The notes beneath the pieces were generated by a model. That model had not been told where the DNA came from and ran no database searches. It saw only the letters and a program-made list of their open reading frames with translations. A stretch of DNA of 64,000 bases from the sequence record OR780565.1; one strand, 5' to 3'. Positions 28,068 to 28,834 of this stretch are shown here, one piece after another. The DNA is from Escherichia phage DCP2. Within the stretch, counting starts at the first letter, position 1. Each line of letters begins with the position of its first letter. The translations under genes and the position numbers were made by a program.

Positions 28068-28556
28068 ATGAATATATTTGAAATGTTACGTATAGATGAA
28101 GGTCTTAGACTTAAAATCTATAAAGACACAGAAGGTTATTACACTATTGGCATTGGTCATTTGCTTACTAAAAGTCCATCACTAAGTGTTGCTAAATCTG
28201 AATTAGATAAAGCTATTGGACGTAATTGCAGTGGTGTAATTACAAAAGATGAGGCTGAAAAACTCTTCAATCAGGATGTTGATGCTGCTGTTCGCGGAAT
28301 TCTGAGAAATGCTAAATTAAAACCAGTTTATGATTCTCTTGATGCTGTTCGCCGCTGTGCATTGATTAACATGGTCTTCCAAATGGGAGAAACCGGCGTA
28401 GCAGGATTTACTAATTCTTTACGTATGCTTCAACAAAAACGCTGGGATGAAGCAGCAGTAAATCTAGCCCAATCTAAATGGTATCGTCAGACACCTAATC
28501 GCGCGAAACGCGTAATCTCAACATTTAAAACAGGAACTTGGAAAGCGTATATATGA
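28068..28556 (+). CDS. e: Endolysin (T4 lysozyme family)
   Basis: 162 aa; near-identical to T4 lysozyme as I recall it ([33 protein letters not shown]...), with several substitutions. Confidence 0.95.
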
Positions 28557-28834
28557 AAACATATAGTGAATTTTTATCAGAATCTATTCTTAACGAAGCT
28601 ACTGATACATTTGCAACTAAGCTAGGTGCAGCTTTGGTTGAAGCTGAAAGTCTATTAGCACGTATTTCTGAACTTGCTAGTAAGATAGATACTCGCAAAT
28701 TTGAACGTACCAGCGATATCGTTAAGCTTGAAGCCTTGTTGCGTATGTGCGATAAACCAGAAGAAATTGCTAAGAACGGCTCGCTAATGAAACAACGTCT
28801 TGAAAAATATATTTCAGGCGCTTCAGAAAAATAG
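28553..28834 (+). CDS. Internal-protein-like capsid-targeted protein in the ipII/ipIII locus
   Basis: Starts [11 protein letters not shown]; ATGA overlap with the e stop; lies between e and denV. Confidence 0.6.

Follow-up and report, generated by a model that had tools for sequence, protein, structure and literature searches.

In phage T4, the internal protein genes ipIII and ipII sit between the lysozyme gene e and denV. What occupies this place in Escherichia phage DCP2, how did it get there, and what might it do? We addressed these questions in a stretch of 64,000 nucleotides from this phage (sequence record OR780565.1), hereafter called the window. The gene order nudE, e, denV and vs.8-like gene is the same as in T4, and the interval between e and denV holds an ATG-initiated frame of 93 codons closed by TAG, which we refer to as ORF93 (Table 1). 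A preliminary description had placed the start of ORF93 over the lysozyme stop codon and its end just ahead of the denV promoter, at the position where T4 carries ipIII and ipII. These points were borne out. Positions 28553-28556 read ATGA on the plus strand, with the ATG lying over the TGA of e, the gap from the stop codon to the GTTTAC of an early-promoter-like element at 28836 is 2 bases, and comparison with T4 confirmed the placement of the two ip genes.

Table 1. Features of the e-denV interval and of other parts of the window, with leaders of related proteins for comparison (a slash within a leader marks a known or predicted cut).
Feature	Position	Strand	Basis and remarks
NUDIX gene (nudE)	27576-28031		Upstream flank; Pfam and PHROGs
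Two late-promoter motifs TATAAATA upstream of e	28034-28041, 28047-28054	+	
RNA hairpin pairing the e ribosome-binding site and AUG	28031..28073	+	-16.2 kcal/mol, z -4.47, 0/200 shuffles as good
e, lysozyme, 162 aa	28068..28556	+	Pfam Phage_lysozyme; 94% identical to T4 e; final ~100 bases in exchanged patch
Recombination patch relative to a51, ~530 bp	~28420..28950	.	e 3' end, ORF93, promoter element, first ~60 bases of denV
Antisense ORF, 114 aa	28525-28869	antisense	
ORF93, probable Ip5-like internal head protein precursor, 93 aa	28553..28834	+	PHROG 3499; purifying selection
Predicted capsid-targeting leader of ORF93	28553..28597	+	First 10 residues/SILNE/A; Tyr4, Phe7; two L-x-E motifs
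Early-promoter-like GTTTAC-N18-TACTAT, before denV	28836..28865	+	T4-early-type pattern scan
10-bp inverted repeat TTCCTCCAAG / CTTGGAGGAA	28842..28889	+	-18.5 kcal/mol, z -2.59
denV, endonuclease V, 138 aa	28893..29309	+	Downstream locus boundary; Pfam Pyr_excise, PHROG 1183; 77% identical to T4 DenV
33-aa ORF starting MRDSRQPVIRSSPSAVMGKYRNGQF	29343-29444	+	
vs.8-like ORF	29407-29994	+	Downstream flank; Pfam and PHROGs
Start of vs.8 (MRTFLT) in RefSeq relatives	29455		
GTTTAC-N18-TACTAT promoter plus stem-loop, on both sides of the 77-aa gene	19747, 20045		
Leader-bearing 77-aa gene, ipI locus	19811-20044	+	PHROG 8111; 77/77 identical to bas37_0260
210-aa ORF	21063-21695	+	a51 and Bas37 counterparts annotated HNH or homing endonuclease
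10 tRNA genes	21702-22645	+	
Terminator-like hairpin AGCCCCGACCGAAAGGTTGGGGCTTTTT, two copies	23322-23349, 23879-23906	+	One before each of the 157-aa and 187-aa genes
Late-promoter motif TATAAATA	23352		After first AGCCCCGACCGAAAGGTTGGGGCTTTTT copy
Leader-bearing 157-aa gene	23398-23871	+	MKSYTQFLNE/AVLNE/A; pI 9.5; PHROG 2280 'unknown function'
Leader-bearing 187-aa gene	23997-24560	+	MKTYAEFLTE/A; pI 9.5; PHROG 2280
Leader, T4 IPII / IPIII			MKTYQEFIAE/A
Leader, T4 IPI			MKTFKEFTSTTTPVSTITE/A
Leader, T2 Ip5			MKTFKEFATKTTITE/S
Leader, VR20 ip5			MKTYNEFLTVTTLNE/A

ORF93 is a genuine coding gene under purifying selection. Its codons differed from those of the CHD94UKE2 counterpart by 9 synonymous changes and 1 non-synonymous change, and from those of VR20 by 24 and 10, respectively. 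In a tblastn search, 238 phage records encoded the protein at 80% identity or more, and 132 of them at 99% or more. The antisense frame matched no family, and was treated as a shadow ORF for that reason. Pfam contained no family for ORF93, PADLOC found nothing, and Rfam over 19000-31000 returned nothing except tRNAs.

The protein matched PHROG 3499, "internal head protein", over residues 1-87 (E 1.2e-46), and BLASTP aligned it with Ip5 of Bas37 and T2 at 48% identity over 84 residues (E 1e-24). Carriers of Ip5 include T2, T6, RB15, a51 and Bas37 (bas37_0261). The name Ip5 already appears in the RB15 GenBank entry Z35082.1, the homologue in VR20 (genus Gaprivervirus) is annotated as ip5, and the identical protein in ZN18 and ime09 carries the RefSeq label "internal head protein". 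The family is otherwise 44-61% identical, with Tyr4 or Phe4, Phe7 and an L/I-x-E site retained. When 1.84 billion cluster representatives were scanned exhaustively with HMMER, just 4 relatives were recovered, and a word-indexed protein search returned near-identical proteins only. The small number of HMMER relatives implied that the family is confined to T4-like phages, and it also meant that no deeper alignment could be supplied for a structure model. Literature searches on the Ip5 internal head protein, RB69ORF127c and virion proteomics gave nothing usable, and turned up neither proteomic data on virions nor an N-terminal sequence for the family. We regard it as very likely that ORF93 is a member of the Ip5 family of T-even internal head proteins and is packaged. 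As a finding of a genome scan this is nothing new, since the protein, its label and the variability of its locus are already on record; the last was described by Repoila et al. (1994), as cited in PMC12373910.

T-even internal head proteins are recognized by aromatic residues at positions 4 and 7 of a leader of ~10 residues, by a gp21 protease motif (L/I-X-E) at the leader end, and by location in a known variable internal-protein locus, and ORF93 has all of these. Its motifs are LSE10 and LNE15, and its location, between e and denV, is such a locus. In the leader, residues 4 and 7 determine targeting, and residues 8 and 10 processing (PMC9026906). The corresponding Tyr4, Phe7, Leu8 and Glu10 of ORF93 make up the canonical N-terminal capsid-targeting set. 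The site at position 15 is common to ORF93, VR20 (LNE15) and Ip5 (ITE15), the latter two being devoid of Glu10, while in two more distant relatives the only site is at 10 or 11. ORF93 thus has site 10 besides site 15. A loose leader pattern matched the six-frame translation of the window 4 times, against 0.075 expected (200 shuffles, maximum 1), and all 4 matches were starts of plus-strand ORFs. The leader of ORF93 is no chance match. Further L/I-x-E motifs, LVE30 and ISE40, lie at invariant positions of the conserved first helix; if gp21 cut there, it would fragment ORF93 like a scaffold protein.

The AlphaFold model of ORF93 consisted of three helices (residues 4-44, 53-66 and 69-90) and had moderate confidence (pLDDT 75, pTM 0.52). 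The predicted mature protein has 78 residues, 8.6 kDa and a pI of 8.1 when cut at position 15, or 83 residues, 9.2 kDa and a pI of 6.3 when cut at position 10. It is therefore near neutral, whereas IPII and IPIII are basic (pI 9.6). A sequence-profile search of the PDB found designed helical bundles only (E 0.014 or worse), and a Foldseek search of the model against the PDB gave nothing under E = 3. Against viral predicted structures, the sole significant Foldseek match was the family member of VR26. Since ORF93 lacks an acidic character, the idea that it might act as a DNA mimic was discarded.

A third locus, situated between the tRNA cluster and e.8, holds two more leader-bearing genes, encoding 157 and 187 residues; T4 lacks such genes there. 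Among the matches listed for the 187-aa gene (164 matching phage records), every annotated row reads "hypothetical protein". Judged by leader and pI, both genes look like unrecognized internal proteins, possibly basic counterparts of IPII and IPIII. The same terminator-like hairpin precedes each of them, and its first copy is followed by a late-promoter motif (Table 1).

The pair of late-promoter motifs upstream of e are the only ones able to serve ORF93; no further TATAAATA was found from 28054 to 28553. The ribosome-binding site of ORF93 is weak (GGAAAG, 8-13 bases upstream). Lacking a promoter to itself and starting over the e stop codon, ORF93 is probably expressed late, driven by the late-promoter pair of e. 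Such synthesis together with lysozyme would probably come at the right time for prohead assembly. The 4-base overlap with e was the same in ZN18 and ime09, and an overlap of 14 bases was found in VR20, a phage of another genus; translational coupling of e and ORF93 through this overlap is possible.

The start of e itself is enclosed in an RNA hairpin, which forms in transcripts begun upstream and holds the second TATAAATA motif in its loop. At the T4 lysozyme start, such a hairpin limits e translation to late transcripts that begin inside the hairpin, and the structure in the window resembles this classical late-only arrangement. On the other side of ORF93, elements homologous to the early-promoter-like element precede ipIII, ipII and denV in T4, and denV in a51. 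A sigma-70 consensus scan performed no better than on shuffles and missed this GTTTAC-type element. In transcripts that read through into denV, the inverted repeat overlapping the element places the denV ribosome-binding site in a paired stem. T4 has different arms (CTCCTGTAG / CTACAGGAG) at the same place before denV; thus, the structure seems conserved through changes on both sides.

The preliminary description had proposed that ipII and ipIII were replaced here by one different leader-bearing protein, in a swap specific to this locus. Alignment of ORF93 to T4 IPII and IPIII was confined to residues 1-11 and 1-16, that is, to the leader, so the protein does not align full-length with IPII. 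No homologue of IPII or IPIII was found in the 64-kb window. A different leader-bearing protein does stand at the place of T4 ipIII and ipII, and it lies in a recombination patch relative to a51. To this extent the proposal stands. However, strict replacement fails, because SP1, CHD94UKE2 and PaulHMueller keep IPIII, with or without IPII, after the order e-ORF93-denV, and because the same gap is empty in the closest backbones. Nor is the exchange specific to the locus, as a protein of the same family (Ip5, 48% identical) is encoded at the ipI locus beside 57B in T2, a51 and Bas37.

The closest backbones over 14 kb were a51 and Bas37 (KarlGJung), in which Ip5 lies at the ipI locus and nothing lies between e and denV. 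The window was 100% identical to a51 over 27600-28200 and 29050-29300, and 98-100% identical up to 29550. Between these flanks the identity fell to 0-80%, with a gap of ~270 bases, and within e it dropped to 76-80% over 28450-28550. This is direct evidence that ORF93 was gained or lost as a patch of ~530 bp, with recombination taking place inside the end regions of e and denV. The neighborhood varied in other phages as well. In T2, e is followed by ipIV, without denV. The order e-ORF93-denV is followed by Ip4 in ime09, by an 84-aa leader-bearing gene and IPIII in CHD94UKE2, with IPII in addition in SP1, by three leader-bearing genes in PaulHMueller, and by ip10, an unnamed leader-bearing gene and ip7 in VR20. 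The DNA identity between the window and VR20 was 85% for ORF93, 72% for e and 68% for denV. The higher value for ORF93 suggests that the cassette has moved laterally or is more strongly constrained.

Some differences from these phages were also seen elsewhere in the window. At the ipI locus, the 77-aa gene has a promoter and a stem-loop on both sides, and the Ip5 gene that precedes the bas37_0260 counterpart in Bas37 and a51 is absent from the window. The 10 tRNA genes directly follow the 210-aa ORF, while T4 has 8 tRNAs with segB within the cluster. Downstream of denV, the 33-aa ORF is identical to the N-terminus of the 219-aa vs.8 annotated in T4 but ends in a stop codon, and a different frame carries the remainder of vs.8. 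In RefSeq relatives, vs.8 starts at MRTFLT, the equivalent of 29455 in the window. Either the long vs.8 of T4 is a different allele, or its annotated N-terminus is untranslated.

Two tblastn searches combined gave 496 phage records with a family member, mostly named as Escherichia, Shigella and Yersinia phages. The ORF93 form occurred alone in 227 of them and Ip5 alone in 258, while 11 had both, giving totals of 238 and 269 records for the two forms. The ORF93 form adjoined e in every case inspected. About 350 of the 846 records that matched the ORF93 region encode no family member. As the counts include GenBank/RefSeq duplicates and related genomes, the exclusivity of the two forms is suggestive rather than statistically established.

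What might such a protein do? The internal proteins of T-even phages are now understood to enter the host by injection and to inhibit type IV restriction enzymes with high specificity. Each head delivers about 1000 molecules of internal protein along with the DNA (PMC3012670), and the first 10 residues of IPIII are enough to package foreign proteins in T4 (PMC9026906). Ip1, Ip2 and Ip3 do not cross-protect: each inhibits a single type IV restriction enzyme of the GmrSD type, and the authors proposed that all proteins of the Ip loci target variants of the GmrSD family (PMC12373910). Infection of ECOR17 needs IPIII (PMC9391042). The leader-bearing Bas37_0260 inhibits McrBC of E. coli K-12, as shown in the HIDEN-SEQ preprint of 2025 (bioRxiv 10.1101/2025.11.20.689424).

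On the strength of the Ip1-3, IPIII and Bas37_0260 precedents, an injected inhibitor of a specific nuclease is the best explanation for ORF93. Through its leader, the precursor would dock on the prohead scaffolding core, where the gp21 protease would trim 10 and/or 15 residues, after Glu10 and/or Glu15. The three-helix product of 8.6-9.2 kDa would stay inside the head and enter the host with the DNA by injection. Inside the cell, its most likely action would be to block one particular nuclease with which the host attacks modified T-even DNA. We consider this explanation as a whole, that is, an Ip5-family internal head protein that is packaged, injected and inhibits a nuclease, to be likely. 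For an anti-restriction role in particular, argued by analogy, the chances seem about even. Some observations count against packaging and anti-restriction, including the near-neutral pI, the missing late promoter of its own, the weak ribosome-binding site, the further motifs LVE30 and ISE40, the moderate confidence of a predicted fold that matched nothing informative, and the negative literature search for proteomic data on the family. Beyond the leader, ORF93 had no sequence similarity to the characterized inhibitors Ip1, Ip2, Ip3 and Bas37_0260, and the PDB searches by sequence and by fold gave no significant match. Proteins known here by name only as ip4-10 showed no reproducible inhibition of five other active GmrSD systems (PMC12373910), and the Bas37 transposon screen, in the part of the preprint available, gives a phenotype for bas37_0260 only and none for the neighboring Ip5 gene bas37_0261 (bioRxiv 10.1101/2025.11.20.689424).

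The main rival to the inhibitor explanation is a packaged protein without any host target that works inside the capsid, helping to assemble the core or scaffold or to condense the DNA, much as IPIII is reported to act in head morphogenesis; it may even be cut to small peptides at the internal L/I-x-E motifs. This is consistent with the invariant positions of LVE30 and ISE40, and with the lack of a target found for ip4-10 (PMC12373910). Internal proteins also co-purify with gp22, heads assemble at half the rate when IPIII is lost (PMC9026906), and lysines of internal proteins contact DNA (PMC3012670). However, ORF93 is near neutral rather than basic. The gene is absent between e and denV in a51 and Bas37, and many records matching the region encode no family member; this patchy presence indicates that ORF93 is no general requirement for assembly. 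Presence and absence through cassette exchange is instead the pattern expected of accessory counter-defence genes. We therefore hold a role confined to the capsid to be unlikely.

It is more improbable still that ORF93 is an unpackaged late protein of the cytoplasm, co-translated with the endolysin as, for example, a lysis-related factor, with the leader as a relic of descent. Although the ATGA overlap with e is kept in Tequatrovirus, a longer overlap exists in a Gaprivervirus, and ORF93 lacks a promoter of its own, the targeting residues and an L/I-x-E site have been kept in a family that has otherwise diverged. The paralogue Ip5 is unlinked to e and lies beside 57B among other leader-bearing genes, and the 10-residue leader of T4 IPIII packages foreign proteins (PMC9026906). 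As for an open frame arisen by chance between genes, nothing speaks for it except that ORF93 is short and has no Pfam family. It is refuted by the PHROG 3499 match, the excess of synonymous changes and the 238 records at 80% identity or more, with the leader pattern in addition occurring far more often than expected, so we give it practically no credence.

Returning to the injected inhibitor, the near-mutual exclusivity of ORF93 and Ip5 is suggestive and would fit one functional niche shared by both. We tentatively propose, at somewhat less than even chances, that the two are alternative forms of one injected inhibitor against a first-response nuclease of the host, such as a further GmrSD or type IV variant. 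If this is true, each phage normally keeps one form, either coupled to e or beside 57B. The proposal would explain the numbers of records with one form or both, as well as the recent exchange of the patch relative to a51. Targets are known only for Ip1, Ip2, Ip3 and Bas37_0260, and the Ip5/ORF93 family is common. A phage with the e-linked form that is otherwise mainly like Bas37 and a51 would provide a convenient near-isogenic pair for target finding.

Among known proteins, Ip5 is similar to ORF93 in the KLGxALxEAExL and EIAKNGSxMKxRLE blocks and in the L/I-x-E site at position 15. It differs in its length of 84-85 residues, in its position at the ipI locus beside 57B, in a leader (MKTFKEFATKTTITE) without Glu10, and in being uncoupled from e. 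T4 IPII and IPIII resemble ORF93 in the e-denV position and in a near-identical 10-residue leader, and presumably share the same route of packaging, cleavage and injection. In contrast, their mature parts (PHROG 7857 and PHROG 5341, respectively) are unrelated to ORF93, and each gene has its own promoter element. Their targets are the GmrSD systems of ECOR21 for IPII and ECOR17 for IPIII (PMC12373910). Both proteins can coexist with ORF93, in which case their genes are downstream of denV.

The functional model for ORF93 is T4 IPI*, an injected inhibitor of the two-subunit GmrS/GmrD enzyme; like ORF93, it is small, has a leader and is encoded at one of the variable internal-protein loci. The leader of IPI has 19 residues and is cut after ITE19, whereas the sites of ORF93 are at 10 and 15. 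The solved fold of IPI* has two β sheets with flanking helices (PMC3012670), while ORF93 is predicted to be all-helical, and the PDB searches found no match between the two in sequence or fold. Bas37_0260 belongs to the same gene class, with an unrelated mature sequence (PHROG 8111 versus 3499) and a position at the ipI locus. The mode of exchange recalls the promoter-early stem-loop (PeSL) cassettes of RB49 and phi1, in which repeated promoter plus stem-loop elements lie on both sides of small variable genes, whose insertion and excision they are proposed to mediate (PMC2839356). A promoter and stem-loop also follow ORF93, and similar elements surround the 77-aa gene. However, the upstream limit of the ORF93 patch falls within the 3' coding part of e and is no such element, and the exchange of ORF93 is explained by homology in the flanking genes.
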